From an uncultured archaeon (GTDB taxonomy: Archaea > Nanobdellota > Nanobdellia > Pacearchaeales > GW2011-AR1): a DNA stretch of 64,000 nucleotides. Location of the stretch: the NCBI GenBank assembly GCA_902385655.1, contig CABMGO010000005.1:99584-163583 (forward strand). The letters are read 5' to 3'. Below the pieces are notes generated by a model, which searched no databases, was not told where the DNA came from, and saw nothing but the letters and a program-made list of their open reading frames with translations. Shown here piece by piece: positions 21,311 to 46,569 of this stretch. Each line of letters begins with the position of its first letter. Position 1 is the stretch's first letter. A program made the position numbers and the translations under genes.

Positions 21311-21368
21311 CCATTTCAAAGTGTCCTTCCATGCGGAAGGAAAATAAAAAAATAAAATTAAATTATAT

Positions 21369-21848: not shown

Positions 21849-21872
21849 TTCATAACCTCCTTTCAAACTTAG

Positions 21873-22319: not shown

Positions 22320-22329
22320 AAAAATCCTA

Positions 22330-22480: not shown

Positions 22481-22488
22481 ATTGTCTT

Positions 22489-23624: not shown

Positions 23625-23643
23625 AGATAACAAACATAATAAG

Positions 23644-25616: not shown

Positions 25617-26171
25617 ATGGAAGAAAAAGAGGATCTAAAAGAAGAGGATATTGAAAAATTAAAGCAAGCAAATATTAGTCTAATAATTGATACTTACGAT
25701 GATATTTTCTCAGACTTCGATCCAAGAGACTTTAACCAGCGAGCTCTTTCCGACGACTTTTTGATAGAATGTAAAAAAGCAGCAAGAGATAAACTAAGCG
25801 GAATAGAGTTAAGAATAATGGTTCCAAAATCAATAAGAAATTTTAAAGATGAGTCCAAAATAAAAAAAAGACTTTTAGATCATTTCAAACATCATTATTC
25901 TTTGGAAGAAAAACAAATAAGAAAAATAGTTTGGGAAGGAATTTCTTGGTTCGGACTTGGAACAATATTTATTTTAAGTGACTCATGGCTAAAAACATTA
26001 AGCATTAACAATTTTGGTTTAACAATTTTGTCAACAATATTAGAACCAGCAGGATGGTTTTCATTCTGGGAAGGATTAGGAAAAGTTTTCATAACAGCAA
26101 AGGAAAAATCAGAAAATTATGAATTCTACAAAAAGATGTCTGATGTAGAAATAAACTTTTTAGAATATTAA
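25617..26171 (+). CDS. Hypothetical protein with C-terminal TM segments
   Basis: ORF; hydrophobic segments. Confidence 0.4.
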   Translation: MEEKEDLKEEDIEKLKQANISLIIDTYDDIFSDFDPRDFNQRALSDDFLIECKKAARDKLSGIELRIMVPKSIRNFKDESKIKKRLLDHFKHHYSLEEKQIRKIVWEGISWFGLGTIFILSDSWLKTLSINNFGLTILSTILEPAGWFSFWEGLGKVFITAKEKSENYEFYKKMSDVEINFLEY

Positions 26172-27040
26172 ACTTTTGAAAGTTTCTTTAGTCTATTTTC
26201 TAAAACAGGCAAACTAGAATTAATTTTTTGAAGCCTCTCATGATACGAACTTGTTCTAACGTTATAAGTTAAAGCAGATATCTTATTCTCTTTAAATCGA
26301 TCAGTTTGTGCCTTTTTAATAAGTTCAGAAAGTGTGCTTTTCTCAGAATGTAATTTTCTAACTGTCATCCTCAAAAATCTAATTCTTAATTTAACATAAA
26401 CAAAATAAGTAAAGAAAATTAATATAACAATAAAAATAGTTATCTGTATCCAGTATCGATAAAAAAAGTTTCTCGCCTGTAATGCCAAACTTTTGAAAAT
26501 AGAATTATTTCCATATTCAGAATCATAAGAAGTTCTAAAACTCTCTAAATAGGTTTGAGACTCATTTAGCCTACCATTATAAAAAGAATCTCGCGCCAAT
26601 AAAAAGTAGTTAGAAGTTTCATTAGAAATAGGATCAGATAATTTTTTTTGCTCAAGATTTAACAGATCATACAAATCCAAAGTTTGCGAGCGAATATCTG
26701 AAACTCGGTTTGTCAAAGCAACGACATCTGAATACTGCAAATTCTTCCAATTTATAAACTGAAGTGCACTTCTTGCATCAATTCTTTCTTGCAAACTAGA
26801 ATTAACTTCTCCACGCAAAATTTGAGCATAAAGAACTTGTATGTAAACATTCTTCGCCTCGACAATTGTATCATTGATATCTGAGTAAGGCAAACTAAGA
26901 TTGATAAACTCATTCAAAATTTTTTCACTATTATTTATTGCGATCAATGCATCTTGAGCAGAATATGTCTGATTTGCTTCCGCCGCTAAAACAAAACTTC
27001 CAAAAAATAAAAATAGCGATAATAAAATTAACTTTTTCAC
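26168..27040 (-). CDS. Secreted or anchored coiled-coil protein (signal peptide, C-terminal TM anchor preceded by FFYRYW, short cytoplasmic tail); GTG start, GTGA-coupled to the giant gene
   Basis: N-terminal signal MKKLILLSLFLFFGSFVLAAEA; C-terminal TM; overlap aaGTGAaa. Confidence 0.5.
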   Translation of the reverse strand: MKKLILLSLFLFFGSFVLAAEANQTYSAQDALIAINNSEKILNEFINLSLPYSDINDTIVEAKNVYIQVLYAQILRGEVNSSLQERIDARSALQFINWKNLQYSDVVALTNRVSDIRSQTLDLYDLLNLEQKKLSDPISNETSNYFLLARDSFYNGRLNESQTYLESFRTSYDSEYGNNSIFKSLALQARNFFYRYWIQITIFIVILIFFTYFVYVKLRIRFLRMTVRKLHSEKSTLSELIKKAQTDRFKENKISALTYNVRTSSYHERLQKINSSLPVLENRLKKLSKV

Positions 27041-33000: not shown

Positions 33001-34083
33001 ACTTAATAAATTAGAAACATTTCCTGAAGAACACATAGAGTTGTCTACTGGAAAAAGTGGAAAACTATCTGAACAATAAAATTGAAGAGTATCAAGATTA
33101 CTATCATTAACACTGTTGGCAGTAATATTCAAACTAGTAGAAATTCCGGAAGGATTTGGAGAAACAGTAATATTAGAAATAGTTGGAGGTAGATTAACAA
33201 AAAAAGTTAACGAGCTAGATGCATTATTTCCATAACTATCGTTTGCATAAACATACCATGTGTGGCTTCCAACAGAATCTGTCAAACCCGAAGTGATGTT
33301 TACCTGAACTCCAGAAGTGCAACTAAAACTTATATTTGTCCCATTACCATTATACCAACAAGACGCCAAATTATTATCACTAACAGTTACATTAAGACTT
33401 GTAACATTCGAAGTATAAGTAGTGTTCAGGGGATAAACAACATTTATTGAGGGAGGAATAGCATCAGGAGTATAAGTAACATTAAAATAAAGATCATCTA
33501 CGCTAAGTGTCTTCGCACCACCGGTTGTTGAAGCAACCTGTAAATATGCAATCGCTCTTGATCCCGAAGCCGTAAAAAAACTATCACAAGACCAATTTTC
33601 AATAGAAGTTACATCAGTACAAATTTCTCCAGGATTTGCAGTTGTTCCCGGACAAACACTAGAAGCAGTTTGATAAGAACCACCGGCATGTGCATCAACA
33701 CTGACACTACAAGTACCAATAGAAGAAGAGCTAGACCACCATTCATAACAAACTTTTACATTAGTAATCCCTCCGCAATTAGAAACACTAGAGTTATAAT
33801 TAGAAGTTCGAATACCCATAAACTGATTATTCCCATTGACAGAAGCACTCTGAATAACTGCATTATTAGTATCAATACTTGTTGTAGAACTACAAACTCC
33901 ACCGAACCCTTCACTAATCCCACTATTATTTTCTACAGCACAAGCCTGCGAAACCAAAACACTATTGGGAGAAGTTGCTCCAGGAAAAGCAAAAGCAGCT
34001 AATACACCAGCCAAACTCAAGAGAACAATAAATAAGAAAAAAACAGAAGAAATTCTTAAATTAGCTAATTTTCCAATAATCAT
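27037..34083 (-). CDS. Giant (2348 aa) cell-surface protein: N-terminal signal/TM, >20 Ig-like ~90-aa repeats extremely rich in N-x-S/T sequons, Gly runs, C-terminal TM anchor (FFYLYW...) and ~220-aa cytoplasmic coiled-coil tail
   Basis: SD GGGAGGAG 9 nt upstream; repeated motif AP..T..SP.N.SY...NE...Y.L.G...N.T...W...FYANDSSGN; hydrophobic helix near aa 2095-2120. Confidence 0.85.
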   Translation of the reverse strand: MIIGKLANLRISSVFFLFIVLLSLAGVLAAFAFPGATSPNSVLVSQACAVENNSGISEGFGGVCSSTTSIDTNNAVIQSASVNGNNQFMGIRTSNYNSSVSNCGGITNVKVCYEWWSSSSSIGTCSVSVDAHAGGSYQTASSVCPGTTANPGEICTDVTSIENWSCDSFFTASGSRAIAYLQVASTTGGAKTLSVDDLYFNVTYTPDAIPPSINVVYPLNTTYTSNVTSLNVTVSDNNLASCWYNGNGTNISFSCTSGVQVNITSGLTDSVGSHTWYVYANDSYGNNASSSLTFFVNLPPTISNITVSPNPSGISTSLNITANSVNDSNLDTLQFYCSDSFPLFPVDNSMCSSGNVSNLLSPYSPYCTYTPNKVAGNYTIYCRMYDGVSYSNKVNYTYTVLGSSMSTSVVSVAGRTIAPYYDNVNDLFTLINISGQSGMSCRWSSSDSSYSSMSSGHQCSISGIYAACNVSDVVSQGATTRYVSCKDSYGNEQTASDNLNVDFTLDYTAPTTSDNSVSSVQLPGYAVTISEADNVDSDPKTYYCTDSTNTCTPSGAIDNLGQINFLVRGTNYLRYFSSDYSGNNQTLVSKTIKINQLPVFSSATDNAATILGGTTVSISTVSSDSDSGQTIKLYVCNQSGISNSGCTYGTYCFATAIANLSCGFASESDSATHNWYAYILDALNESATANPLTGSYTTDSTGPTITIISPTNTSFSSVNISAEIATSEASASARYSLDGTANVSMTNLSSTSFIASLNNLAYGLHNITFYANDSFGNFGSSVLRYFTIQTPVDITAPSLTFVSPSNASYTNPSGTYVNVSSDEDLVWAGYRLNGGSLLNLTSATARVWYVNLTSLSQETNYTITVYGNDSSANQGNRTIVFYADSLAPRYSSVSAPSTNQSLPVNCSIYWNDTYNINSVIISENSLGSFENHTISFSGNSGLASYVIVGSKLANAGNYVCRFYAADVAGNTNFTSASFSVSDVTAPSITVTSPTNGGVYNQVDILFSFISNENLSAGWYHLNSTGFNYSMGNTSPTNWNATFTGVSGQAYSIVFYGNDSSGNLGVSSAVVFSINTGAGDLISPVVTINSIANASYKSLSGVALNVSVNENVSWVKYSLNGSANISLTNTTLLNWNATLPDLAQESTNSLVVYANDSSGNIGSSSIIFYADTLAPRFSSVSATSVNETQNANCTAYINDSFALSSVKISEDATTPMVFMNHTIDLSSTGYANYTIINVQKGSDYTCRFYATDAAGNTDSTSTTFDVNDVTAPVLTINSPIAQNYSTSSILFSLTTNEEVVSVNYSLDGGTTNVSLTGSGVSWSKTSTLADGSYTVIFYAIDSSGNLGIANVSIVVDTTVNDLVAPVITVLSPLNNSYDLDGSVLLNISTNEDLSWAGYNNGSGIFNLGNTSLRNWNATISLAEGVHNIIFYANDTSSNKNQGNRTVVVSVDLNNPSVNSFNCDNTVNDSKNLTCNASFSDAVGLDYAILSNNFSGSFVNGSQIDLSGTADSINYLFTQGNYTPGVYSIQVYLFDLAGRVNDSVSRTVTVLDDRAPSVSEIIYSPNTSDELDPGVDVTINATVSDNYLMGSAIVYYKNISDSSWSTSLMTNNSLTNYNTSIVFAEGNWTFYVNASDAQGNTNISSNYTLGVYPDVSQAISTNITVVKSFTYTERSSSNELGYIILNTTSDTSLNYNVSISASADIVGRFNLNNTLNQTENYSASSGDVLYLPLYVNLTGLTSALYPYNITVRSEAGTVVIERNLNVQTASGPYLSVSIDTYSSSVTRGQGDLDFVVSVTNLGTADAHDVYLSWSLPSGFDLTSGILSRYLGTVPVGVSGTNSIKINVSSSISGSIVNVSALANSSNADSASDLRNIRITNPLTITQTVVQAGGGGTISSQAGGGGGAEIVYSKIIDVVRGEGGKLDLVVQNNRSGASLQNLSLNLTGYLSQYMDFYPSIIKYLGPNSNGSFTVTLKVPSYKEAYEEYNVTAHIRGQIVYNQTVGDYTETQYIKLIIQEVSYEVASNKLFDAEKALKNMTEHLFNVVNVQSLFDQAKSKLDIRRNKESFDLSSQVIDISKMAFTVNDLIARLVTALNDPAKTNLIVGNVAREVNINNQSVSSFDYVTGKAVFASQDVQEIIDLASAAFERGDYELALERARQAQVLLVLERKGNVGLFFYLYWQYVLVALILLSFVSIVGFRAYKKNSISQKIEDLNKEEKTIGELRKHSQKLYLSGRKSAHDYHDEMNRYQKRIANIKKSRVNLRNNRIKLLSAQQVSKDLELEAKQVESEIVRLQENYFKKKLISKAEYDIEFEMYTERLAEIENEKTTLHLVNNQDKYEGKYLQVATK

Positions 34084-34254
34084 TTTCTTAACTCCTCCCT
34101 CAAAGTCTTTTCAACAAAATCAGAAATCTCAAAACCTTCGTTGATACAATGGATTTTTACTTTTTTCCACAAGTCTTCATCAATCTTTAAACTAGTAGTC
34201 TTTCTCACCATTTTACCAAACTCTCCGAGTATTAAAATTTAGTTTGAGAGTTGG

Positions 34255-34450
34255 TAAGGCTGAACAAAAACGCTTCGAACAAAATTGACTCTGTTCATTA
34301 TATTTTTTGTGAAATGCATTTTTGTGAATTAAAAATGCGGAGCATTGACTGCCGCTAACGGTGAACAAAACGCTTTGAGTAAAACAAATTTCTTTTTCAT
34401 TGGTACGAAATGCATTTTGTGAGTTCTTTTTCGATCGAGCCAACAGCTCG
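34255..34450. repeat. Imperfect ~65-bp direct repeat (GAACAAAA(A)CGCTTYGA...TGTGAAATGCATTTT...) in the upstream region of the giant gene
   Basis: Two copies aligned by eye. Confidence 0.45.
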
Positions 34451-34596
34451 AAATCATTCGAAAAACGCCCTAGACAATTTTCAGTAGTTTTCATCATCCT
34501 CTTTTTATAATTATATACTGTAAAACAACTATTTAAAGCTTTCTTTACAGTATTATAGTATTATGAAATATTTTAATACCATAAATCTAAGAATAA

Positions 34597-35805
34597 TTAA
34601 CCCGTATCGCTAAACACTTCCTGTTCAGGATAAACAACAATTCCTTCAGCAGTTATTTGGGCGGCAACTATTTTCTTTTGATGAGAAACCCCTCGAAGTT
34701 TTAATAACTCGATGGCATTTTCTCTAACATTTCCGTGCTTCAATGCATACAAAACAATTACCCCATCAGCCAAGAACTCCTCTACACCTGTTTGTGAAAA
34801 TATTTTAGGAACTTGTTCTGTTTCAGTAACTAAAAATGAAGTAGCACCAGTTTTTTCCAAGAATCTAAATAATTGTTCAATATAAATACGATAACTATCT
34901 TCTTTCCCAGTAAATGCAGAAGCTATCGCAGTCAAAGAATCAATGACTACAAAATCAGGATGCGCAAAATCCTCAGGCATAATTACTGGATCAACATCAA
35001 TCAATAACTCTCCTTTCTGTTGTGCAAGTAACGCATCAACATTTCTCGTAATATCGAATGGATTCATTCTCTGCAATCTTAATTTTCCTTTTTTAATTAA
35101 TTCCCTAGGATTCCAACCAAAACCTTCCATATGCTCAATCAACCTTTCCTCATTCTCTTCAAAGCTCATATAGAAACATTTTTTTCCTTCTCTTGCCTTG
35201 TTAATTAAAGTCTGTAAACAAAAAATAGTTTTACCACTTCCAGCACCACCAGCAACTAGTACAGAAGAACCAGAGGGAATTCCTTGTTCAAGTAAATCAT
35301 CAAAACCTTTAATTCCAGTTTTCACATAATCTTTCCCTAGCTTTCCAGTTTTTTCCTTAGAACCCTCAAGAACATGAACTAACGGTGCTCTTTTTTCAAA
35401 AATTTCAGCCTCAGATTTTTTTATTTTTCCGCCGCGTAATTTTTCTTCAACTTCTTGTTTAACTTTAGTAGCATCAAATTCTTTTTGTTTAGAAACTTCA
35501 ACTTTCTTATCAGATTTTTTCTTAATATGCTTTTCCTCTAACGAAACTATCTTTGCTTTATCCCCTTGCTCGACAACTTCCTCTTCACCCGCTTTCCAAC
35601 TGTGAAGTTTGGCCATATTAACTTTTCTAACACCAACATGATTTGCTCCAATTAGTCCGTGAAGTCTAGCAAGAACAGTATGTCTCGCTAAACCAGTCAT
35701 TTTCATAATATCGACGATAGAAAGTCCTTCAGGATGACTTTTAAGTAAATCAGAAATCGTAGTCTTCACCTTATCTTTTTCAACTATTACCATAACCTCT
35801 CCCAT
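34597..35805 (-). CDS. Winged-HTH + KaiC/RecA-superfamily ATPase
   Basis: Walker A GGAGSGKT, Walker B FVVIDS, KaiC-like core; N-terminal HTH; start set at MGEV with TATA TTTATAAATAAA 16-27 nt upstream (leaderless). Confidence 0.7.
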   Translation of the reverse strand: MGEVMVIVEKDKVKTTISDLLKSHPEGLSIVDIMKMTGLARHTVLARLHGLIGANHVGVRKVNMAKLHSWKAGEEEVVEQGDKAKIVSLEEKHIKKKSDKKVEVSKQKEFDATKVKQEVEEKLRGGKIKKSEAEIFEKRAPLVHVLEGSKEKTGKLGKDYVKTGIKGFDDLLEQGIPSGSSVLVAGGAGSGKTIFCLQTLINKAREGKKCFYMSFEENEERLIEHMEGFGWNPRELIKKGKLRLQRMNPFDITRNVDALLAQQKGELLIDVDPVIMPEDFAHPDFVVIDSLTAIASAFTGKEDSYRIYIEQLFRFLEKTGATSFLVTETEQVPKIFSQTGVEEFLADGVIVLYALKHGNVRENAIELLKLRGVSHQKKIVAAQITAEGIVVYPEQEVFSDTG

Positions 35806-35820
35806 CAATTTTAAAACACA

Positions 35821-35832
35821 TTTATTTATAAA
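35821..35832 (-). promoter_or_regulatory. TATA box of the leaderless wHTH-KaiC-like gene
   Basis: TTTATAAATAAA ~20 nt upstream of the ATG. Confidence 0.45.
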
Positions 35833-35894
35833 TGTTGCGATATATGACAGTTGTATATGCCTAATAAATAAAACATATGAATTTGACAAGTATA

Positions 35895-36065
35895 TATAAT
35901 AGATATATGTGACATATTAAAAAGATACAAATTTCATTATTTTTACGTGTAAAAAGATATGTGTGACAGATATATATGATATACATATATAATAGATTAA
36001 AAGAACTAGAAGAGGCATATCATATACGAATATGATAGATATATATGATAGATTAAAAGAATGAA
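35895..36065. repeat. AT-rich low-complexity direct repeats (GATATATGTGACA x2; ATAGATTAAAAGAA x2)
   Basis: Visible direct repeats. Confidence 0.45.
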
Positions 36066-36084
36066 AAGTTCATTGATAAATTAA

Positions 36085-36258
36085 AAGGATAATTTTAAAA
36101 GATGATGATGCTGAAGAAATTTTTCAGCTTTCCAAAAGAGTTGGGAAACATAAAACAATTCGAGGGCGGGTTTCGAAGCGTAGCTTCGATAAAGTGGGAG
36201 ATTAGAGAGCTGAAAAGTTTCGACCAAAACAGAGCCATACATGCTCGCGTAAAAAAAT
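36085..36258. repeat. Structured element family S, copy 2
   Basis: Same conserved flanks as copy 1, with different but self-complementary stems (TTTCAGCT/AGCTGAAA; TTCGAAGC-GTA-GCTTCGA). Confidence 0.5.
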
Positions 36259-36273
36259 AAACTCACCTAAGAA

Positions 36274-38613
36274 TCACTCTAGCAACTTCTTCAACTTTTT
36301 CTGCTCTTCAAGAATATTCTTTTCTACAGAATTGACCTTCTTCTTCAAATCTTTTTTAGCTTCTAAAAGCATTTTCTTTCTAACCTCATCATTTTCAGAT
36401 TCCAATCTGTGTTTCTCATGCATCTCAAAAGCACGTTCTTGTTTTTCAGTCTGACTTTGCAATTCCTTTTGTTTTCTAGCTAATTCATCATCAAATTTTT
36501 TCTCCATTACAAGTTTTTCATTTTTTATTTGTTTCTCAAAATCACTCTTCTGAGATTCCATCGTAGCAACAAACATATTTTTTTGTTTTTCAAGCTCAGC
36601 AGATTCCTCTTTCTTAAGATCTTCAACCTGTCGATTAAATTCTACTTTCTCTTCTATAAACTCTTTACCCAATTTGCTCTTTTCAACTTCCAAATTTTTC
36701 TTCTCAATAATTTTATCATGTAAACTCTCTTTAAGCTCCTTCAGTTGAGCCATTTGAGCAGCACTAATTTCCTTATTATTCTTAAGTTCAGAAATTTTTT
36801 TCTTTAGCTCTTCATTCAGTTTATTCAAAGACTCAGCCTGAGTAAGTACCTCTTTTCTAAACTGTTCTTCTTCTCTCGAAAGTTGCTTTTTTTCATCAGC
36901 TACCTGCAAATTCAAATTTTTTATCTGAGAATTATATTTATTTTGTAAATTAATCTCAAAAGATTTCTCGTGTTCTTCAAATTTCTGCTTAAACTTGTTC
37001 TCTAATTCAACTCGTCTAGATTTGTATCTTTCAGCCAATTCGACACGTTCTTTTTTCAAAGACTGCAAAAGATCTTGATTAACTTTCTTCTGACTTTGTT
37101 CAGCCGAGAATAATTTATTATATTTTTCTTCCAAATTGCGTTCTTCTTTTCTATTTTTTTCCACAAGCTCTTTTTCTTCTCTGCCAAACTGTTCTTCTAG
37201 CTTAAGCTCTTCAGATTCCAATGTTTTTCTAGATTCCTCCCTAAGAGAATTAAGAAGATTTTTTCTTACAGATTCATTTTCAAATTCCAACTTTTTTCTT
37301 TCTTGAGCTTCAAACTTTCTCTCTTCCTGTTTTTCTTGTCTCACTAATTCTTCCTCTCTTCTTTTAAAACGATTTTGCAAAGCAAGTTCTTCAGATTTTA
37401 ATTTCTGATTTAATTTTAATTCAATCTCTCGTCTTATTTTATTTTTTAATGCCTCGCTAATTTGTTCACGCTTTTTCCTTTCCTGCTCCTTTTCTTCTTT
37501 CTTAATTAAATTTTCTAATTTCTTATCTAAATCAGATTCTCTTTTCTGTAAAGAATTGCTATATGCTTCTCTTTCTAATCTGAGCTGATTTTCCTTAATT
37601 TTCAAATCCCCAATTCTTGATTTAAGATTTTTTAGAAGAGAAACTTGAGTTCCACTAACTCCTTTCGCACTAAGTTCTGCAGCCTGACCATTCAAGCCGT
37701 TCTTCAATTTTCTTAAAGATTCAGATTTGTTCGCAAGATCATTTTTCAACTTTTGCTCTTGAGATTTCAGTTTTTGTTTTTCCTTATCAACACTTTCTTT
37801 AATACGTTTGACTCTCAAATCGCTTTTTTTCTGAAATTCTAATTCTAAACTCTTTTTCTGATTATCCAAAGCTTTTTTCAACTGTTCCTTGAGTTCTGCA
37901 GAATATTTTTTCTGAAGTTTAGACTTCTCCCTTTTCAGATTTTTCTCCTCTTCCTTACTCAACTCTTCTTCAATTTCCTTTTCAGCCTCTGACTCATCTA
38001 CTTCTTCCTCTTTCTTCCCTTTCTTCTTGCCTCCCTTAAAGAAAAACAACTCTTCGGACTTGGAAGGAATTTCTTTAGAAACGCCTAATGCAACCTTGCC
38101 GGATTTCCCAATCAAAAGATGTTGTCGAGCATATGCATGATAGTCCTGATCATCACCAAGAATATGGTTTCTCAGCCAATTAGCCATAAAAGTCCTCGCT
38201 TCAGCGATTAAATTCAAAAGACTAAAAGAAGTAATAGTGCTCTTATCCGAACGATATAACTGAGTATATAGTTTATCTTTAAAATTTAAAAAATACTCCA
38301 CAAAAGCCAAATGAATTTTTCGGTGCATCTCCAATTTAGGGTACTCAATTCTTTTCATATAACCTTCTTCATAAGAAAAATGTTCTCGAGCATATTTATC
38401 AGTCAAATCAATAATCTCTCGGATCCTTGCAACTTCTTCCCCCTCCTTAGTTTCAACAAGCAATCGATTGAGTATTCCAAGTAATCCTTGATGTTGATGA
38501 TCGATGTTAGCCTCTTCTACGCTCATCTTGGGAATCCAAACGACTGGCTTGCCTTTAGCAATAACTAACCTCCCCTGCTTAATTTTGCCTATAACCTCTT
38601 TTTTATTTTTCAT
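36274..38613 (-). CDS. Hemerythrin-domain protein with ~600-aa K/E-rich coiled-coil extension
   Basis: N-terminus IDHQHQGLL...HFSYEEGYM...HRKIHLAF...WLRNHILGDD (bacteriohemerythrin pattern); the rest is heptad-like KE repeats. Confidence 0.55.
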   Translation of the reverse strand: MKNKKEVIGKIKQGRLVIAKGKPVVWIPKMSVEEANIDHQHQGLLGILNRLLVETKEGEEVARIREIIDLTDKYAREHFSYEEGYMKRIEYPKLEMHRKIHLAFVEYFLNFKDKLYTQLYRSDKSTITSFSLLNLIAEARTFMANWLRNHILGDDQDYHAYARQHLLIGKSGKVALGVSKEIPSKSEELFFFKGGKKKGKKEEEVDESEAEKEIEEELSKEEEKNLKREKSKLQKKYSAELKEQLKKALDNQKKSLELEFQKKSDLRVKRIKESVDKEKQKLKSQEQKLKNDLANKSESLRKLKNGLNGQAAELSAKGVSGTQVSLLKNLKSRIGDLKIKENQLRLEREAYSNSLQKRESDLDKKLENLIKKEEKEQERKKREQISEALKNKIRREIELKLNQKLKSEELALQNRFKRREEELVRQEKQEERKFEAQERKKLEFENESVRKNLLNSLREESRKTLESEELKLEEQFGREEKELVEKNRKEERNLEEKYNKLFSAEQSQKKVNQDLLQSLKKERVELAERYKSRRVELENKFKQKFEEHEKSFEINLQNKYNSQIKNLNLQVADEKKQLSREEEQFRKEVLTQAESLNKLNEELKKKISELKNNKEISAAQMAQLKELKESLHDKIIEKKNLEVEKSKLGKEFIEEKVEFNRQVEDLKKEESAELEKQKNMFVATMESQKSDFEKQIKNEKLVMEKKFDDELARKQKELQSQTEKQERAFEMHEKHRLESENDEVRKKMLLEAKKDLKKKVNSVEKNILEEQKKLKKLLE

Positions 38614-39083
38614 CTAACTTCAATTTTATCTGCAGATTGTTTAATTAGAGCCACCAACTTCTCGTCAGTACTTCCTTTCGGAAGAACAAAAACTAAGTCT
38701 ACATCCCATTCATGAGATCTATACAGAATAAATGAAAAGAACTTTACCAAGACATCCAAATTATTTCTTATAGCAAGATTAGTTATAGAATCAAATAAAA
38801 TAGTTACTTTTCCAGTAAAAGACTGTTGCGATTGATTTATAGCAATACTGAGAGAAGTTAGATTTTCACCAGACAAATAAATAACACCATTTTCAGAAGG
38901 CTTGTCAATTGTATCAATAAATAGAAAATGTCTGCCCTTAGAAACTTTCACTAGATCATCCTTAAGTAAATCATATGGTTTTGAAGATAAGACTAAAACA
39001 GTATTGTCCGCAGACTTTTTTAGAGATTCAATAAAGTTTTTTTCTAATTTTTCCGGCCTACTCAAAACGAGTTTAATCATCAT
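38610..39083 (-). CDS. Degenerate KaiC/RecA-like (DUF835-like) protein, paralog of 40381-40911 and 41286-41819
   Basis: Shared FID(T/C)..., (I/V)(L/I)FD(S/N), ADK(I/V)EV pattern; no Walker A. Confidence 0.45.
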   Translation of the reverse strand: MMIKLVLSRPEKLEKNFIESLKKSADNTVLVLSSKPYDLLKDDLVKVSKGRHFLFIDTIDKPSENGVIYLSGENLTSLSIAINQSQQSFTGKVTILFDSITNLAIRNNLDVLVKFFSFILYRSHEWDVDLVFVLPKGSTDEKLVALIKQSADKIEVR

Positions 39084-39888
39084 CGCCCCTCACGAAATCT
39101 TTAGACTTTATATAAAAAGCAAGTGCAACAGACACATAAAAAAAAGTATATAGTAAGTCGATAGGATGCCCAGCATAATAAGTGTTATTCTGGCTCATAT
39201 TAGCGAATATCTGGTCATAAACCAGTCGAGTTAACATTCCTCCGCCGAGAATAACCCAATGCCAACCATATTGACTACCTTCGAATAAAATTGGCCAAAC
39301 AAGATAAATAATTAGTAGCAAAACAATAACATCATACAGAATATATGAATCTTGTATAAAATGACTAAAACCAACATTTCCTTCTCGGATATCCTCAGAA
39401 ACATCATTAAAAAGTATAACTCCTCCAATAACAAGGCCAGTAACAACAAGAAGATAAATTAATCTACTGGATGGTCTAAACCCTACTGAAATAAAATAGA
39501 CTAAAGAAATAATCAAAGCGACATACGCCAAACTCCAAGCCAGATCCGGATAGCTCCCCAAAGGAGTAACTTTGTCAAACACGGCCTCAGCAATTAACCA
39601 AAGAAGATCGCCTAAAAAGAATAAAAAAATAGAAATTATTAGAAAAAGCTTACCTTCTTTTTCTCTAGGAAAATTTTGAGAAATTTTTCGATAAATAAAA
39701 ATTGTAGAAAACAACGCTAAAAGAGCAAGAATAACGATAAAGATATTTGCAATAGCATGACGATAATATTGAAAACTAGTCCCAAAAATAAAAATTGCTT
39801 GGAAGACATAAACAACAACTGCAGCAATCAAAATCCAAAAAAATAATCTGCTACTATAAGAACTACTGACTTTGACACCTTTTTTCAT
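39073..39888 (-). CDS. Polytopic membrane protein (7-8 TM), function unknown
   Basis: Hydrophobicity pattern; overlaps neighbours within the operon. Confidence 0.5.
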   Translation of the reverse strand: MKKGVKVSSSYSSRLFFWILIAAVVVYVFQAIFIFGTSFQYYRHAIANIFIVILALLALFSTIFIYRKISQNFPREKEGKLFLIISIFLFFLGDLLWLIAEAVFDKVTPLGSYPDLAWSLAYVALIISLVYFISVGFRPSSRLIYLLVVTGLVIGGVILFNDVSEDIREGNVGFSHFIQDSYILYDVIVLLLIIYLVWPILFEGSQYGWHWVILGGGMLTRLVYDQIFANMSQNNTYYAGHPIDLLYTFFYVSVALAFYIKSKDFVRGDDD

Positions 39889-39952
39889 GATAATCTCAAA
39901 GAAAATATATATTTAAATGTTACATTCTCGGCAAAAATAGATTCAGCAACCC

Positions 39953-40330
39953 CTAACCCTTTATCTCGAATTCTTTCCGAACCAACTCCAAAATCTCGTC
40001 ATTCGAAATTGGTTTTTTCACAATACCAACTAATTTTCTTACTCCCTTCAAATCAGACTCAGTCAATTCAGAACCAGTCAAAAAGATTACTTTTAATTTC
40101 GGAAATTTCTTAGCAAGATCAACTCCGCTCTCACCATCTAACATAAATTCTATAATTGCCAAATCAGGATTTTCTGACTTAATTTTCTGGATAGCCTCTT
40201 CGATATTATATGCTTGAAAAGTTCTGAACCCATTAAATTCTAAAATCTGAGAAATGGCAACAGCAGTCTGTACGTGATCATCTACGATAGCAACAAGCAC
40301 CTTTTTAGAACCAACACTGCTCTCTTTCAT
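39953..40330 (-). CDS. CheY-like receiver protein (REC3)
   Basis: VLVAIVDDH ... IIEFMLDGESG ... FLTGSE. Confidence 0.7.
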   Translation of the reverse strand: MKESSVGSKKVLVAIVDDHVQTAVAISQILEFNGFRTFQAYNIEEAIQKIKSENPDLAIIEFMLDGESGVDLAKKFPKLKVIFLTGSELTESDLKGVRKLVGIVKKPISNDEILELVRKEFEIKG

Positions 40331-40380
40331 AAAATAAGTATACAAAAGAGATTTTTAAATTTTATGAAAATTAAAATAAA

Positions 40381-40911
40381 TCATTTAACTAACACGGTGC
40401 TGTCAACAAAGAGAGAAATATCGGAAACAATCTTCTTTTTACCTTCGAGCATGATCCAATAGAGTGCTTTTATTTTTTTCTGCTGAACTCTGGACATAAT
40501 ACTATTCAAAAATCTTAACACAAATACCTCTGAATTGTATAGAAGCAAACTATCCAAATTATCAAATATCACCAGATCATACTTGCCAATAATAGAAGAA
40601 AATTTCAAAGAAAGTTCAGTTAAAGCGTGCGGAGATGGAAGATAGTACACTTTGTCATTTGAAACAGCTTTCATCAGTTTAGAAGAGACACAGTCAATAA
40701 AAAAACAGTTAGAATAGTCTATTCTATTATCGTCAAAAGTAGTCATCAAAGTTGAAGATAAACGATTTGTAGTTATTACACAAACTTTCTTATATTTTTT
40801 TAAAAGCAATTTGTAAGTCTCAAGAATATTTTTCTCAGGATTGAGATTATCACAAATAGCTAAAACATTGTAGTTCTTATTCAAGTTTGAAACTATTTCT
40901 TTACTCGCCAT
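40381..40911 (-). CDS. Degenerate KaiC/RecA-like (DUF835-like) protein X2
   Basis: Paralog of 41286-41819; KaiC-like Walker B region (VIFDNLDSLLLYN) but the P-loop is replaced. Confidence 0.5.
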   Translation of the reverse strand: MASKEIVSNLNKNYNVLAICDNLNPEKNILETYKLLLKKYKKVCVITTNRLSSTLMTTFDDNRIDYSNCFFIDCVSSKLMKAVSNDKVYYLPSPHALTELSLKFSSIIGKYDLVIFDNLDSLLLYNSEVFVLRFLNSIMSRVQQKKIKALYWIMLEGKKKIVSDISLFVDSTVLVK

Positions 40912-41285
40912 TATTCTTTTAATATTTCTCCTATTCTTTTTTTAAATGCATCCAAATCCAATAAAGGTTTATGAAAATATTCTATAGGTTTCAAAGTTTT
41001 AACCAGATCTCTACCTGCCTGACCCAATTCAACAACAGTAAGAAAAGCTACTTTTTGATTTTTTAATTTAGGATCCTTTCTAATAATCTGAAGAACTTCT
41101 CGGCCAGACATTTCAGGCATCAAAATATCTAGAAGAACCAAGTCAAATTTTTGTTTTTTCAAAATATTTAGAGCATCTTTTCCAGTGTTAACTGCCTTAA
41201 CAACATAACCCATCTTAGTTAAAAGAAGTTTAACAGAATCAGCAATATCTGGCTCGTCATCAACAACTAAAATTTGTTCCTCCAT
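40911..41285 (-). CDS. CheY-like receiver protein (REC2)
   Basis: ILVVDDEPDIAD...FDLVLLDILMPEMSG...FLTVV...K. Confidence 0.8.
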   Translation of the reverse strand: MEEQILVVDDEPDIADSVKLLLTKMGYVVKAVNTGKDALNILKKQKFDLVLLDILMPEMSGREVLQIIRKDPKLKNQKVAFLTVVELGQAGRDLVKTLKPIEYFHKPLLDLDAFKKRIGEILKE

Positions 41286-41819
41286 TTAAATAACCTCCAC
41301 CTTATCTGCAAACAAAGACAGATCTTCCATTACTTCTTTACCAGTATCATGAGAAAGTAAAAAAACTCCTCGAAGCTTAGAGAAATTTATTTGGTGCATT
41401 AAATTATTTAAAAACTGTAAAACTGGAACAGTATCATTATACAAAAGTAAAGAGGAAACGTTATCAAAAATTATACAATCTGATTTATGAATTTCCTCGC
41501 CTAACAAAAGAGCCAAATTTTGCAAAGCACGAGGAGAGTCTAAATATTTACACTGTTTGGACACAACTTGTTGCAAGGTAAGAGAAGAGATACAATCAAT
41601 AAAACTGAACTTAGAGTAATCAATTTCCTCTTTTCTAAATCTTTCGGTTAGAACAGTAAATGGTTTATCAACACTTACAAAACAAATCCGCCTATATCTC
41701 GGAGAAACAAGTTTAACAATTTCTAGCATAGACTCAACGGGATCTGAATTTCGAGAAATAACGACCAAATTTTTTATTTTGGGCAATTCACCAACGATAT
41801 TAGCAATCTTTAGACTCAT
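41286..41819 (-). CDS. Degenerate KaiC/RecA-like (DUF835-like) protein X1
   Basis: Paralog alignment with X2. Confidence 0.5.
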   Translation of the reverse strand: MSLKIANIVGELPKIKNLVVISRNSDPVESMLEIVKLVSPRYRRICFVSVDKPFTVLTERFRKEEIDYSKFSFIDCISSLTLQQVVSKQCKYLDSPRALQNLALLLGEEIHKSDCIIFDNVSSLLLYNDTVPVLQFLNNLMHQINFSKLRGVFLLSHDTGKEVMEDLSLFADKVEVI

Positions 41820-42193
41820 TAGTCCTCCAAAACCTTCTTCAATCGCTTTCTAAAATCAGCAATATCTAAAATAGGTTTTTGAAAGTACTCTACAGGTTTC
41901 AAGGCCTTAATAATTTCTTTTCCAGCTTGACCAAGTTGAACAACAGTGAGGAAAGCTACTTTTTGATTTTTTAATTTAGGATCCTTTCTAATAATCTGAA
42001 GAACTTCTCGGCCAGACATTCCAGGCATCATAATATCGAGGAGAACTAAATCAAATTTTTGTTTTTTCAACAAATTTAAAGCAGACTTACCATCGACAGC
42101 AACAACAGATTCGAGTCCTTCGCCGTCGCAAAGCATTTTAATAGAAGTAGCTATATCAGACTCATCATCAACTATCAACACCCTTTTAGCCAT
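41819..42193 (-). CDS. CheY-like receiver protein (REC1); start moved to ATG (ORF-track start is TTG)
   Basis: VLIVDDESDIATS...FDLVLLDIMMPGMSG; C-terminal half encoded by DNA nearly identical to REC2. Confidence 0.8.
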   Translation of the reverse strand: MAKRVLIVDDESDIATSIKMLCDGEGLESVVAVDGKSALNLLKKQKFDLVLLDIMMPGMSGREVLQIIRKDPKLKNQKVAFLTVVQLGQAGKEIIKALKPVEYFQKPILDIADFRKRLKKVLED

Positions 42194-42209
42194 ATCACGA
42201 TAAAACAAT

Positions 42210-45200
42210 TTAAGTATTTAAACTCTCCGAATTTTTCGTCAGAGGAGATTTAAATGGCAACGTAAAAATAAACTTACTTCCTTTTCCTTTTTCACTTTCA
42301 ACCCAAATTTTTCCACCATGAGTCTCGACAATTCCCTTACAGATAGTAAGCCCTAATCCGACACCCTTATGTTTAAGTTTGTAAGAGGGACTAATTTGAG
42401 AAAATGGCTTAAATATTTCCGATTGCTTTTCTTTTGATATACCGATACCCTCATCTTTTACACTTACAACAACCTGATTATCTCTTTTCGAAATTTCTAC
42501 ATGAATATGGCTATTTTCAGGACTAAATTTTATAGCATTACTTAACAAATTAGTAAAAACCTGTTTTATTCTAAATGGATCCACAAATAATATTGGCGTC
42601 TTTACACTATTAAAGCTAATTTTTATGTGACTTTGTTCAGCAAGTGCAGAAACAGTAGAAATTGCATCTTTTGCAATAATATCCATTTCTGAATCTTCCG
42701 GAATAACTTTCAAACTTTTATTTTGTATTGTCGCAACATCCAAAACATCTCCAATCAATTGATTTAAGGTTTTCATGTTTCTAGTAATAAGGTCTACACT
42801 GTTTTTTTGTTGTTCTGATAAATTACCCATATATCCCTCTTGTAACATTTGTGCCTGAATTAAAATTGGAGTCAGTGGTGTTTTCAATTCATGCGAGGTA
42901 AATGCTAAGAACTGATTTTTCATTTGATCAAGTTCTTTTAACTTTTCATACGCATCCTCCAATTTCCTTTTAGCCTCTACATCAGAACTAATGTCTCTTA
43001 CAGTTGCCTGCAGAAATTTTTTCCCATCCTTCTCGACTAAACTTAATAGGACTGTTGCAGGAAAATCTCCATCCCCTATTCGTTTATGAGTCCACTCAAA
43101 ATAATTCGACCCATTTTTAACAGCCAAATTAATCATTTTCTTAGCTTTAACAGAAGACAATTCCCCGTCAGACTGATATTTAGGAGAAACATCTATTGGG
43201 CCAAGAGAAATAAATTCTTTTTCATCCTTACAATTAAACATTTTCAGAGTCATGGGATTTCCAGAAGTAAACTTAAAAGAAACAGTATCTAAAGTCATGA
43301 TAGCATCAGCCGAACCTTCATACAAAATCCGATATTTTTTTTCGCTTTCAAGAATTTTTCTTTCCGATGCCTTCAAGTCAGTAATATCTTCAGAAATACC
43401 TAAAAGATATTTAGGACTCTTCTTTTCATCGAGAATGGGAATTTTCTTAGTATGTAAAAGTCTTTCTCCCCTCGGAGTCTTAATTGGTTCTTCAGGAATA
43501 TCTAAAAGTTTTTTCTTATCTAGCACATCTCTATCTTTTTTAGTAAAAAAATTTGCCTGTTTTTTAGGAAAAAAGTCATAATCATTCTTGCCGTAAAAGT
43601 TCTCTCTTTTTTGACCGAGTAATTCTTCTCCAGCTTTATTGAACAGTTCAAATCTCAAATCTTTAGCATCTTTTACAAAGATCATGTCTGGAACATTCTC
43701 AACAACCGAATTCAAGAAAGCAGTCTGCTTTTGAAGTTCAGAAGTTCTGTCTATAACAATTTTGTCCACATTCTCTTTCTCTCGTATAAGTTCATCTTCT
43801 GCTTTTTTTATTTCATCGATATTAATAATTACACTAACAATTTCCTTTAATTTACCTCTTTCATATATGGGGTTCCAAGAGTGAGAAACCCAATAGACTC
43901 TTTTGTTTTTCCCAATAATTCTATATCTTAAATTCTTTCCAGGCATTCCCTTAACAGCCTCAGAAAGAAATTTTTTAACAAGCGGTATGTCCTCTGGATA
44001 AAAAATATCCGGAACAGTGCCTACAAGATCTTTAGCCGGCCAGCCAAAAACTTCCAAAGAGGTCGGACTTAAATAAGAAACAACTTTATTTGACAAAGTA
44101 AGCATCATTACAGCATTTGAACTTTCAGAAATAAGCTTGTACTTTTCCTCACTTTCTTGTAGCTTTTCCTCTGTTTTTTTTCTTTCAGTAATGTCTTGAG
44201 CCGTTCCGTAAAGGCAAACAATTTTTCCATGCACATCACGTTTTACAGCACCTCTAGCGAGAATCCACTTTCCATAAATATCTGGCTTTCGATACATTAG
44301 TTCAAGCTCGTATGGCTTTCCAGTTTCCATAGCCGTTTTCACAGCCGCATCCAGCAACTTCGCATACTTTGGTGCATAAGCTTTTAGATGATTAACATAA
44401 TTAGGAGTGGGATCATTTAGTCCGATATTATAAATTCTACGATATTCTGCAGACCAGACAATACTATCTGTAGGAATATCCCAATTCCAGCTCCCGATAT
44501 GGGCAATCTGTTGTGCTTCTTCAAGATCTTTCTCAGTCTTTCTCCACTGAGTTACATCTCTGAAGATACCTATCTGAAAAATTTCATCACCCAATTTTAA
44601 AGAAGTAGCAGAAATATCTGCATAAAAAATAGATCCATCTTTTCTGACCACAGGCAAATTTGAAACTATTTTAATTTTTCCTTCAGCTTGTAATTTAAAT
44701 TGTTTAAGAGCATATGAAAGATCTTTTTTTGGATGAATATCATTTACACCAAGTCTAAGAACTTCCTCGCGAGTATACCCTAAAAGATTACAGAAGGCAT
44801 CATTAGCCATAATGAATTTCTTAGAGTTTAAGGTAGCCAAAACAACTCCATCAACAGCGTTATTAAAAATAGCTTTAAACTTCTCCTCGCTCTCCTGTAG
44901 TTTTTCTAAAAAAATTTCTTTTTCAGTAATATCTCGATTAGTTCCTCGGTAACCTCTAAAATTTCCAAAGTCATCAATAATTGGATTGCCACTTGCTTCC
45001 AAGAGAACCAAAGATCCATTTTTATGCAAAGTCCAATTACCCAAATCTTTCATTGGAGCTCTTTTCTTAACAAGAGAATCATAGATAGCTTTGACCCTCT
45101 TAGCTTCGCCAGGAGGCATAAAATCAAAATGAGTCTTTCCTATCATTTCTTCAGGACGATAACCCAAAATATCCTTAACAGAAGAACTCAAATAAGTATA

Positions 45201-45662
45201 CTTTGCATCCTTATCAACTTCCCAAATAATATCGCTAGTTGACTCAACAATATCCCTAAACCTTTTTTCACTCCGTTTTAACAAATCTTCAGACATCTTA
45301 GTTTTAGTTATATCTTGAGAAAAAATTAAAACACCTTCAGAAACAGGATTTATCGAAAGAAGAAATGTCCCCTTAGAACCATCGGGATAGACAAAAACAT
45401 TTTCCATACTCACAGATTTTCTAGTCTTCAAAACCTGTTTAATTTTAGAAAAAAGTTCGGTCTTTTCTATTCCAGGATAACACTCCGCCATAGTATTCCC
45501 TATTAATTCACTACGCTTTTTTCTTGCATGCTTTTCTAAAGAATTATTTGCATAAATATACCTGTATTCGCCATCAATAATCTGCGCACCCTCGATAACA
45601 TTATCCAGGGGTGCATACTTTTCAGCAACAAGATGCAAAAAAGCCTCAAAATCCTCTTCCAT
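42210..45662 (-). CDS. Multi-PAS sensor histidine kinase (1150 aa; >=6 PAS/PAC, HisKA, HATPase_c)
   Basis: H-box FLAFTSHELKTPL; N/G boxes NLLSNAIKFS...VKDEGIGIS...GVGLGLTICK; repeated PAS cores. Confidence 0.9.
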   Translation of the reverse strand: MEEDFEAFLHLVAEKYAPLDNVIEGAQIIDGEYRYIYANNSLEKHARKKRSELIGNTMAECYPGIEKTELFSKIKQVLKTRKSVSMENVFVYPDGSKGTFLLSINPVSEGVLIFSQDITKTKMSEDLLKRSEKRFRDIVESTSDIIWEVDKDAKYTYLSSSVKDILGYRPEEMIGKTHFDFMPPGEAKRVKAIYDSLVKKRAPMKDLGNWTLHKNGSLVLLEASGNPIIDDFGNFRGYRGTNRDITEKEIFLEKLQESEEKFKAIFNNAVDGVVLATLNSKKFIMANDAFCNLLGYTREEVLRLGVNDIHPKKDLSYALKQFKLQAEGKIKIVSNLPVVRKDGSIFYADISATSLKLGDEIFQIGIFRDVTQWRKTEKDLEEAQQIAHIGSWNWDIPTDSIVWSAEYRRIYNIGLNDPTPNYVNHLKAYAPKYAKLLDAAVKTAMETGKPYELELMYRKPDIYGKWILARGAVKRDVHGKIVCLYGTAQDITERKKTEEKLQESEEKYKLISESSNAVMMLTLSNKVVSYLSPTSLEVFGWPAKDLVGTVPDIFYPEDIPLVKKFLSEAVKGMPGKNLRYRIIGKNKRVYWVSHSWNPIYERGKLKEIVSVIINIDEIKKAEDELIREKENVDKIVIDRTSELQKQTAFLNSVVENVPDMIFVKDAKDLRFELFNKAGEELLGQKRENFYGKNDYDFFPKKQANFFTKKDRDVLDKKKLLDIPEEPIKTPRGERLLHTKKIPILDEKKSPKYLLGISEDITDLKASERKILESEKKYRILYEGSADAIMTLDTVSFKFTSGNPMTLKMFNCKDEKEFISLGPIDVSPKYQSDGELSSVKAKKMINLAVKNGSNYFEWTHKRIGDGDFPATVLLSLVEKDGKKFLQATVRDISSDVEAKRKLEDAYEKLKELDQMKNQFLAFTSHELKTPLTPILIQAQMLQEGYMGNLSEQQKNSVDLITRNMKTLNQLIGDVLDVATIQNKSLKVIPEDSEMDIIAKDAISTVSALAEQSHIKISFNSVKTPILFVDPFRIKQVFTNLLSNAIKFSPENSHIHVEISKRDNQVVVSVKDEGIGISKEKQSEIFKPFSQISPSYKLKHKGVGLGLTICKGIVETHGGKIWVESEKGKGSKFIFTLPFKSPLTKNSESLNT

Positions 45663-45715
45663 TTATCACCCTTTTGATATATGAAAGCCGGCTCATATAT
45701 AAATCTATTTGAAAA

Positions 45716-46132
45716 TCACTTAATATAATGATGCTCTAAAAAATAAAGATAATAATTATGGTCCCAAACTTTAAGATGAACTTCCCACCATCCTTTAAGA
45801 AAAGTAAGTAACCCGTCAAGAACATCTTCTCCATCAGTCATCCTATCTTTAAATTTTAGAACTTCGATCAACAAGCCCGCATGCTGAAGTATATGCTCTC
45901 TTGCACCCTGATAATTCCACTTCTTAAAATAACCCTCCTCAGTATCAAAGTGTGCCTTAGATAAGTCAACAAGCTCATTAATAATCCTCAATACATCTAA
46001 ACTGTCTCTCCCCCTAGAATTTGCAACCTTGTAAGTCTCGTTAATAAGTTGAAAAAGATGCTTATGCTGTTCATCAATCAAATCGATGTGAACACTTACT
46101 TTCTTAGTCCATTTAATAAGTTTCTTTTCCAT
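45716..46132 (-). CDS. Hemerythrin (bacteriohemerythrin-like)
   Basis: IDEQHKHLF, HFDTEEGYF, HILQHAGL, WWEVHLKVWDH; start set at MEKK with a GAGGTG SD. Confidence 0.7.
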   Translation of the reverse strand: MEKKLIKWTKKVSVHIDLIDEQHKHLFQLINETYKVANSRGRDSLDVLRIINELVDLSKAHFDTEEGYFKKWNYQGAREHILQHAGLLIEVLKFKDRMTDGEDVLDGLLTFLKGWWEVHLKVWDHNYYLYFLEHHYIK

Positions 46133-46218
46133 AAACACCTCTAAAATCAAAATATAATAAATATATAAATTATTCTGCCACAACAATATTTATAAACAAA
46201 CCAAATTAAAAACAAAAT

Positions 46219-46569
46219 ATGGAAAAAGATGTTGGAAAAATAAAAAAGAATGATAACACAGACATAATTATTAGAGTGGATGATTTTGGTGGAAAAATTG
46301 GAGTTACAATAAGAGAATTCACAAATGACCAAAGAACAGGATACAAAGGTTTCACAAAAGCTGGAACAAGAATTACTGCAGACCAATTTCAAGAATTCAA
46401 AAATATGATTAATTCAATTTCTTTAGAAGGATTGCAACCAAGTCCAGAAGCAATCGCAAAAGCACAAGCATTCAAAGACAGCAAAAGAACACAATCAACA
46501 CTCGGTGGACAAAAATCTTTCCAGAAAAAACCATCTTTCTCTGATATTTCTGAAGAAGATTTGATGTAA
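46219..46569 (+). CDS. PC4/YdbC-like ssDNA-binding protein (tentative)
   Basis: IIRVDDFGGKIGVTIREF...GYKGFTKAGTRI resembles the PC4 fold. Confidence 0.35.
   Translation: MEKDVGKIKKNDNTDIIIRVDDFGGKIGVTIREFTNDQRTGYKGFTKAGTRITADQFQEFKNMINSISLEGLQPSPEAIAKAQAFKDSKRTQSTLGGQKSFQKKPSFSDISEEDLM

Follow-up and report, generated by a model that had tools for sequence, protein, structure and literature searches.

In cyanobacteria, KaiC is a double-domain protein that works with KaiA and KaiB and acts on SasA/CikA and then on RpaA, and hemerythrin-domain sensors are known from the DcrH chemoreceptor and the Bhr-DGC diguanylate cyclase. In archaea, KaiC ATPases have been proposed as signalling hubs (Makarova, Galperin and Koonin 2017, mBio 8:e01959-17, to the extent presented in PMC5847659), and CirA and ArlH act on the archaellum and motility (PMC10983859). 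Response regulators that combine a receiver (REC) domain with an inactivated KaiC-like domain (iKaiC) have been tabulated as REC-DUF835(iKaiC), iKaiC-REC and MEDS(iKaiC)-REC proteins (Galperin et al. 2018, PMC5847659, Table 2) and come from Methanomicrobia, Thermoplasmata, Methanosarcinaceae and Nitrososphaera; none of the REC-iKaiC regulators had been studied experimentally, and most REC-only regulators were without conserved neighbourhoods (PMC5847659). Here, we analysed a 64-kb window from a contig of an uncultured archaeon, and read from its DNA sequence and predicted open reading frames (ORFs) a minus-strand cluster at 36274-46186 (positions are those of the window) that encodes hemerythrins (Hr), a histidine kinase, receivers, a membrane protein and three KaiC-like proteins without a P-loop, named X1, X2 and X3, and that is followed by the gene of a KaiC ATPase (Table 1). 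We are inclined, with moderate confidence, to interpret it as a KaiC-centred signalling system of two modules, in which the X proteins would be adaptors coupling receivers and a membrane receptor to KaiC.

The predicted structure of X1 has a central parallel beta-sheet and a RecA-like core that can be superimposed on KaiC-like ATPases, with DnaB, RadA, Rad51 and Elp6 among the lower-ranked matches of the fold comparison. The X proteins carry the motifs CIIFDNVSSLLLYN and FADKVEVI and have no P-loop (Walker A, GxxxxGK[ST]), X1 reading ISRNSDPVES at that place, and the Walker A motif is absent from all 150 of the best X-family representatives. A KaiC/RecA core without a P-loop, together with these two motifs, had been proposed in a sequence-only reading of this DNA, and both the structure prediction and the motif survey bear it out. 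The pair of catalytic glutamates that follows beta2 is also lost: the family reads S/T-L-N-K-P and X1 SVDKP where the window KaiC reads SFEENEE. Because the P-loop and the catalytic glutamates are both missing, X should be unable to hydrolyse ATP. The aspartate at the end of the Walker B strand is retained (D119 in 147 of 151 sequences, X1 numbering), and D75, D119 and D172, listed alongside Y127 and F73, are nearly invariant across 150 divergent P-loop-less members. These three aspartates sit at the C-terminal ends of beta-strands, which suggests a conserved acidic site where KaiC would hold its nucleotide; candidate roles for the site involve a metal, the basic finger of a partner or phospho-chemistry.

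The family to which these proteins belong is large. With E<=1e-3 as the limit, an exhaustive profile search returned 2454 cluster representatives, which are almost without exception stand-alone proteins of about 165-190 amino acids (aa), and among 44 members sampled at this threshold, 41 matched DUF7504, 31 KaiC (PF06745), 20 DUF835 and 12 DUF7090. The kinship with DUF835 and KaiC suggested earlier is thereby extended to a DUF7504/DUF835/KaiC superfamily. In the Pfam search that had been suggested as a check, the relatives of X match these families, but X1-X3 themselves score only below the cut-offs: for DUF835 (PF05763, cut-off 33.1 bits) X1 reached 14.7, X2 17.2 and X3 16.0 bits, the last over the full profile length, and for DUF7504 (PF24336, cut-off 27 bits) X2 reached 26.5 and X3 16.3 bits, with no match for X1. 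X2 is 37% identical to X1 and also matched a FlaH subfamily (E=0.0037), and X3 was matched by the hidden Markov model of the X family. Judged from these scores, X is a relative of DUF835 that falls outside its curated threshold, and it is best described as a DUF7504-like iKaiC. A profile search of PDB sequences with X gave nothing below E=0.3, and no paper on DUF7504 was found in a literature search.

The relation of the cluster to the downstream KaiC gene was followed in related loci (labelled L001-L046; 45 loci were examined overall). They were sampled with a narrower X alignment, so the sample is biased to relatives sharing two short motifs. The closest genomic relatives are metagenome-assembled genomes of Candidatus Woesearchaeota, in agreement with the DPANN affiliation assumed before. 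In L002, L003 and L013, hemerythrin and KaiC form one protein of 492 aa (Hr::KaiC); in L002 the N-terminal half shares 45% identity with the hemerythrin of Hr-CC, the last protein of the window cluster, and the C-terminal half 83% with the window KaiC. L012 has the split form seen in the window, an Hr-coiled-coil protein and then a 399-aa KaiC (79% over the full length), and in L015 Hr and KaiC are adjacent genes. The window thus has the Hr::KaiC gene in split form, and because relatives fuse hemerythrin and KaiC in one protein, the window KaiC belongs to the same system. Together with the recurrence of X genes beside active KaiC genes, this gives substance to the link between the cluster and the downstream KaiC that had been offered as one possibility.

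By its score for PF06745 (180 bits, cut-off 26.6) and its Walker A (GGAGSGKT), Walker B (FVVIDSL) and acidic (FEENEE) motifs, the window protein is a genuine KaiC-family ATPase. It has one KaiC domain and scores 139 bits with NF006799, against the 408-bit cut-off for circadian KaiC. That part of the earlier description as a winged helix-turn-helix (HTH) KaiC ATPase stands, but the HTH is weakly supported: the N-terminal region matches HTH_IclR at 15.7 bits (cut-off 22) and the HTH of TtgV in the PDB at E=0.39, a weak match. The region is conserved in L012 and L045. Upstream of the gene, the AT-rich spacer contains three ~52-nt direct repeats (35871-36058), 65-71% identical, each beginning with TTTTAAT on the coding strand, a motif unique in the window. 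In L012, a palindrome, TGTGTGATA...TATCACACA, lies upstream of the orthologous KaiC gene, and TCACACATA is common to the window spacer and the region of this palindrome. The repeats and the palindrome are candidate operators.

Distant members of the X family are found in two contexts, beside a canonical receiver with a kinase nearby or beside a KaiC gene with an intact Walker A motif. The second context was seen in about 20 loci, and REC-X adjacency in L006, L008, L010, L014-L018, L020 and L026, in which all receivers are canonical. Membrane sensor-like proteins encoded beside KaiC can also have X as their C-terminal domain, on the cytoplasmic side. These contexts bear on the possibility that X works without KaiC. 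Elp4/5/6 and RAD51 paralogues are formers of rings or scaffolds, and by analogy X1-X3 might form a ring or scaffold of their own, or might play the part of ArlH at a type IV pilus/archaellum-type ATPase; the assembly would then be under the control of receiver phosphorylation, with direct regulation of the pilus machinery 15 kb downstream. We regard this as unlikely, since X-KaiC adjacency recurs in divergent loci, Hr::KaiC is part of the conserved gene order, and no pilus ATPase gene was noticed beside X in the 45 loci, although no systematic search for one was made.

The gene order itself is conserved. In L002 and L003 the first gene, for Hr, is followed by those for a 120-aa protein, a dCache-HAMP kinase and a kinase-less PAS protein; REC, X, REC and X come next, and then a membrane protein of ~270 aa, X3, a set of two or three small membrane proteins, and Hr::KaiC. 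The RECa/Xa and RECb/Xb pairs form separate orthologous groups, which are kept in L001, L002, L003 and L015. The membrane-protein gene and X3 are always found together in the related loci, and the X3 orthologous group (55-64% identity) always follows the membrane-protein gene. Domain identities, the KaiC/RecA fold, the loss of ATPase motifs, the conserved gene order and the fusions are established, and the cluster is made of two separable modules, A with the kinase and the REC-X pairs and B with the membrane protein, X3, hemerythrin and KaiC.

In module A, the presence of three receiver proteins was confirmed with Pfam PF00072 (REC1 69.8, REC2 74.8 and REC3 54.6 bits). REC1 and REC2 are 65% identical and retain equivalents of D12, D13, D57, T87 and K109 of CheY (DDDTK), and both should be phosphorylatable CheY-like receivers. 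The count of receiver/X pairs, however, has to be lowered from three to two, REC1-X1 and REC2-X2, since REC3 is followed, after 64 nt, by the membrane-protein gene, and the proposed fourth degenerate KaiC-like protein falls away with it, the X proteins being three in total. REC3 is also not the canonical CheY-like receiver it was taken for: when aligned to CheY, it has a glutamate in place of the phospho-acceptor D57 (LAIIEFMLD; codon GAA), alone among 36 receivers compared from 20+ loci. The aspartate is present in the protein most closely related to REC3, the third REC of L015 (41% identity). REC3 could be a constitutive phospho-mimic pseudo-receiver, or the glutamate could be a single-base difference in one assembly. 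A fourth stand-alone receiver is encoded outside the cluster (12011-12427, minus strand) and has a glutamate at the Lys109 position (DDDTE).

The kinase contains six PAS domains above Pfam cut-offs and a weak seventh, followed by HisKA (61.5 bits, with the H-box FTSHELKTP) and HATPase_c (117.1 bits), which places it among class I histidine kinases. No transmembrane (TM) segment was predicted in its 1150 aa, in keeping with its previous description as a cytoplasmic kinase with at least six PAS domains. The kinase-less PAS protein of L002 aligns with residues 19-927, and the dCache-HAMP kinases of L002, L003 and L015 have kinase cores that match residues 881-1144 at 55-57%. Because the PAS array and the kinase core match separate neighbouring genes in L002, the window kinase is a fusion of two genes that adjoin each other in relatives, from which the extracellular dCache sensor has been lost.

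Both hemerythrins described before were recovered as such. Hr1 reached 97.5 bits with NF033749 (cut-off 84) and 43.7 bits with PF01814, with HxxxE, HxxxH and HxxxxD motifs present, and the N-terminal 180 aa of Hr-CC reached 86.6 bits with NF033749. With at least 84 bits and the iron-ligand motifs H/HxxxE/HxxxH/HxxxxD in both, these are predicted bacteriohemerythrin domains. The coiled coil of ~600 aa reported for Hr-CC corresponds to residues 181-779, which consist of 19.9% Glu and 19.9% Lys with 0.2% Pro, and nearly no Pro or Gly. A standalone Hr also precedes the kinases of L002, L003, L005 and L015. A third hemerythrin-domain protein (PF01814, 34.4 bits) is encoded outside the cluster at 7279-7701 on the plus strand.

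The membrane protein of module B, for which 7-8 TM segments had been proposed, has 8 helices in its predicted model, and many of its intra-helix polar residues are invariant. Microbial rhodopsin was considered for its identity and rejected, as there is no retinal-type lysine in the middle of a helix. We read the protein as a receptor-like input with X3, whose gene overlaps it, as its transmitter. In the relatives, two or three tandem membrane proteins of ~110 aa are encoded between X3 and Hr::KaiC (L002 12740-13413; L003 12723-13746; L013 11106-12157), and in the window they are missing and X3 overlaps Hr-CC directly.

From these data we infer which proteins of the system interact physically, which way the signal runs, what is sensed and where the output goes. 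The multi-PAS kinase of module A, with Hr1 encoded just upstream, would phosphorylate REC1 and REC2, each translationally coupled to its own X protein, and each REC+X pair would be the split-gene equivalent of a catalogued fused REC-iKaiC response regulator. Module B would join the 8-helix receptor-like protein and X3 to hemerythrin and an active single-domain KaiC ATPase. Because X shares the KaiC fold, the X adaptors may dock onto the KaiC oligomer or co-assemble with it, and docked X would modulate the ATPase activity, autophosphorylation or oligomeric state of KaiC; X1 and X2 would be controlled by phosphorylated receivers and X3 by the membrane protein. The di-iron hemerythrin would report O2, redox or iron to KaiC; relatives have the two in one protein, and in the window the hemerythrin stands apart, on a long helical arm. 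An output through KaiC and its N-terminal HTH-like domain is plausible, and would probably be directed onto the adjacent genes for a ribbon-helix-helix (RHH) regulator and a giant surface protein. O2 sensing and the control of adhesin or pilus expression are likewise what we infer.

Several results weigh against this model. When the X profile was compared with the window KaiC by hhalign, 20 columns of the Walker-B stretch were aligned and nothing else, at a probability of 0.5%. Because the comparison covers this stretch alone, the likeness of X and KaiC is structural rather than close. X2 is 32-35% identical to the Xb group, and its orthology is not clear. The HTH assignment on KaiC is below threshold and the fused Hr::KaiC relatives are without an HTH-like domain; therefore, a transcriptional output is not general. 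As for transcription, the interval from REC3 to the membrane-protein gene contains a T5 run and a TTTAAATA box, which speaks against the single transcription unit assumed earlier, and the cluster is probably more than one transcript. KaiC is the downstream neighbour of the cluster, as had been stated, but not immediately so: its gene lies 468 nt 3' of Hr-CC and beyond a T7 run, and because the spacer contains this run, KaiC is probably transcribed separately. Finally, the modules occur apart: L001 and L004 are limited to module A (kinases and REC-X-REC-X) and L013 to module B, where an X-like protein is encoded besides the membrane protein, X3, the small membrane proteins and Hr::KaiC.

With modules A and B found separately, and with terminator-like and promoter-like sequences at the module boundaries, the Hr/kinase/receiver unit, the membrane-protein/X3/Hr unit and the KaiC/adhesin unit could be independent and juxtaposed by chance. 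This we consider very unlikely. Module A precedes module B in at least four separate contigs (window, L002, L003 and L015), both modules use members of a rare family, X, and fusions tie Hr to KaiC and X to a histidine kinase.

The model is weakest in the direction that it gives to signal flow. In L045/L046, the gene for an X::HisKA::HATPase_c fusion has a KaiC orthologue (62% identical to the window KaiC) on one side and REC on the other. In this fusion X is the N-terminal input domain of a kinase, an arrangement that suits a KaiC-to-kinase flow no less well and counts as a further point against the model. X also adjoins KaiC in many loci without a receiver. By analogy with the cyanobacterial pathway, KaiC, set by hemerythrin and the membrane receptor, could be a sensor or timer whose state X relays to the two-component proteins, and receiver-bound X would then control receiver phosphorylation or availability. 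We think such a reversed flow rather unlikely, since it is REC, and not the kinase, that X follows, with 1-nt overlaps, in the window as in its close relatives, the kinase has PAS sensor domains of its own, and the catalogued REC-iKaiC fusions put iKaiC at the output of the response regulator (PMC5847659). A flow from receivers and membrane receptor to KaiC is the direction kept in our model.

The cluster comprises 10 ORFs (46132 down to 36274) and not eleven as counted before. The tight packing of these minus-strand genes was borne out, with junctions of 53, 1, -1, 0, -1, 35, 64, -11 and -4 nt in gene order from Hr1 to Hr-CC. An anti-phage defence system was also considered and was ruled out by the absence of PADLOC matches: no PADLOC model matched X1-X3, the membrane protein, KaiC, Hr-CC or the membrane-associated protein p290, and REC1 had matches of the generic receiver type only.

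Table 1. Genes and intervals of the cluster and its downstream neighbours, in order of transcription (window positions)
Feature	Position	Strand	Description
Hr1	45716-46132	-	standalone bacteriohemerythrin, 138 aa
histidine kinase	42210-45662	-	cytoplasmic, 1150 aa; PAS array, HisKA, HATPase_c
REC1	41819-42208	-	canonical stand-alone receiver; likely start ATG at 42193
X1	41286-41819	-	P-loop-less KaiC-fold protein, 177 aa; start overlaps REC1 stop by 1 nt
REC2	40911-41285	-	canonical stand-alone receiver; 0-nt gap after X1
X2	40381-40911	-	P-loop-less KaiC-fold protein, 176 aa; start overlaps REC2 stop by 1 nt
REC3	39953-40345	-	atypical receiver, Glu replacing the phospho-acceptor Asp; ATG at 40330 as likely start
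membrane protein	39073-39888	-	271 aa; 8-helix bundle resembling 7TM receptors
X3	38610-39083	-	shorter P-loop-less KaiC-fold protein, 157 aa; 11-nt overlap with membrane-protein gene
Hr-CC	36274-38613	-	hemerythrin (residues ~22-170) and ~600 aa Glu/Lys-rich helical region; 779 aa
intergenic spacer	35806-36273	.	T7 run after Hr-CC stop; three ~52-nt direct repeats
KaiC ATPase	34597-35805	-	single-domain KaiC family; ~150-aa N-terminal HTH-like extension; probable true start 35793
RHH-like small protein	34080-34211	-	43 aa; overlaps giant gene start by 4 nt
giant surface protein	27037-34083	-	2348 aa; signal/TM, Ig-like domain, C-terminal TM, charged tail
membrane-associated protein (p290)	26168-27040	-	290 aa; conserved after giant gene; no Pfam match

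Downstream of KaiC, the giant protein has an N-terminal signal/TM segment (residues 14-32), an Ig-like domain (Big_13, 51.2 bits), a C-terminal TM segment (residues 2182-2200) and a charged helical cytoplasmic tail of ~150 aa. The position of KaiC beside a giant adhesin gene, noted from the sequence, is conserved, as the giant protein that follows Hr::KaiC in L013 is 52% identical to it over >1000 aa. In matching positions of L013, a 48-aa gene is 59% identical to the 43-aa ORF and a 285-aa gene is 34% identical to p290. The 43-aa ORF has sub-threshold matches to RHH proteins (Omega repressor, CcdA and CopG), and in L045 a comparable 52-aa gene stands ahead of another giant protein. A 94-aa ORF at 34213-34497 was rejected as a gene, having neither a family match nor a counterpart in relatives. 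Large secreted proteins also follow KaiC/X clusters in L003 (GLUG, 853 aa), L012 (1477 aa) and L045 (at least 1674 aa, Laminin_G_3), and the KaiC cluster of L002 is followed by a P-type ATPase instead. The tail of the giant protein (27037-27600, residues ~2182-2348) and Hr-CC both contain long charged helical stretches, and a cytoplasmic contact between them is conceivable. The coiled-coil protein of L012 has a weak BLAST match to the giant tail (E 1.8e-4), which is possibly compositional.

Further along the same strand, a type IV pilus-like locus (15203-23633, minus strand) encodes a T2SSE ATPase (18818-20341), T2SSF membrane proteins (16326-17171 and 17268-18509) and several small pilin-like ORFs (20592-23633), one of them with a weak DUF7289 match; a HerA/DUF87-like ATPase is encoded at 13666-14973. 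Between the adhesin and pilus regions lie a plus-strand gene for a matrixin-like metallopeptidase with a CARDB domain (24088-25023) and, adjoining it, a tRNA-Ser (25067-25149). On the other side of the cluster, a small PC4-like protein (46219-46569, plus strand; PF02229, sub-threshold) is encoded divergently from Hr1, and a 48%-identical PC4-like gene flanks the membrane-protein/X3/Hr::KaiC module in L013. The PC4-like gene marks one chromosomal neighbourhood, which has the two-component module in the window and lacks it in L013.

Some 40% of the response regulators of archaea consist of a receiver domain and nothing else. The receivers of this cluster are conserved and translationally coupled with a defined partner family that recurs beside KaiC, and they give a concrete wiring diagram, from histidine kinase to receiver to inactive-KaiC adaptor to KaiC, to a hub idea that has so far been computational, with the Hr::KaiC fusion adding a candidate O2/redox/iron input. 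If true, a general partnership of receivers and X would provide a function for archaeal REC-only regulators with unassigned targets. The lineage is believed to depend on cell-cell contact, and the conserved position of the system beside a giant surface protein points to a possible way for DPANN archaea to control attachment. In its widest form, DUF7504-like P-loop-less proteins would be general downstream partners for the stand-alone receivers of many archaea, and two-component phosphorylation, 7TM-type receptors and hemerythrin would converge on a KaiC that, in these DPANN archaea, controls whether a giant adhesin, and possibly the nearby type IV pili, are expressed or deployed for host contact; we offer this as a tentative extension on which we would not yet rely.

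Compared with known systems, the window locus is nearest to the REC-iKaiC response regulators, with which it has in common a receiver and an inactivated KaiC-like domain as presumed output, with protein-protein interaction predicted. Unlike them, it has separate, translationally coupled genes in two diverged tandem pairs, its third X is paired with a membrane protein rather than a receiver, its X proteins are nearest to DUF7504 and below the DUF835 cut-off, and the lineage is Woesearchaeota-like. The view that the combination is uncharacterised holds with regard to experiments, but a receiver with an inactivated KaiC was already tabulated (PMC5847659). The archaeal KaiC hubs, CirA and ArlH, are similar in having a single-domain KaiC amid signalling genes and a link to surface structures, and differ from the window system in its hemerythrin input fused or adjacent to KaiC, its multiple P-loop-less paralogues and its giant Ig-like surface protein in place of arl genes. 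The cyanobacterial KaiC-SasA/CikA-RpaA pathway offers an analogy, as KaiC would be joined in both to a kinase and a response regulator by a KaiC-binding adaptor domain; that of SasA, however, is a KaiB-like thioredoxin fold and not an inactivated KaiC, and the double-domain KaiC with KaiA and KaiB has no equivalent here. DcrH and Bhr-DGC may likewise serve as analogues, with a bacteriohemerythrin set on a signalling output as O2/redox/iron sensor, but the partner here is KaiC, fused in relatives, or in the window a charged helical arm of ~600 aa; no paper linking hemerythrin with KaiC in such a way was found in our literature search. A further parallel exists with RecA/KaiC-fold proteins whose ATPase motifs are lost and whose part is that of an assembly or regulatory subunit. 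Relative to the kind of regulator already predicted, what is new in this locus are the split, tandemly duplicated REC/iKaiC pairs, the pair of membrane receptor and iKaiC, a probable hemerythrin input to KaiC, a Woesearchaeota-like DPANN host and the linkage to a giant surface protein.

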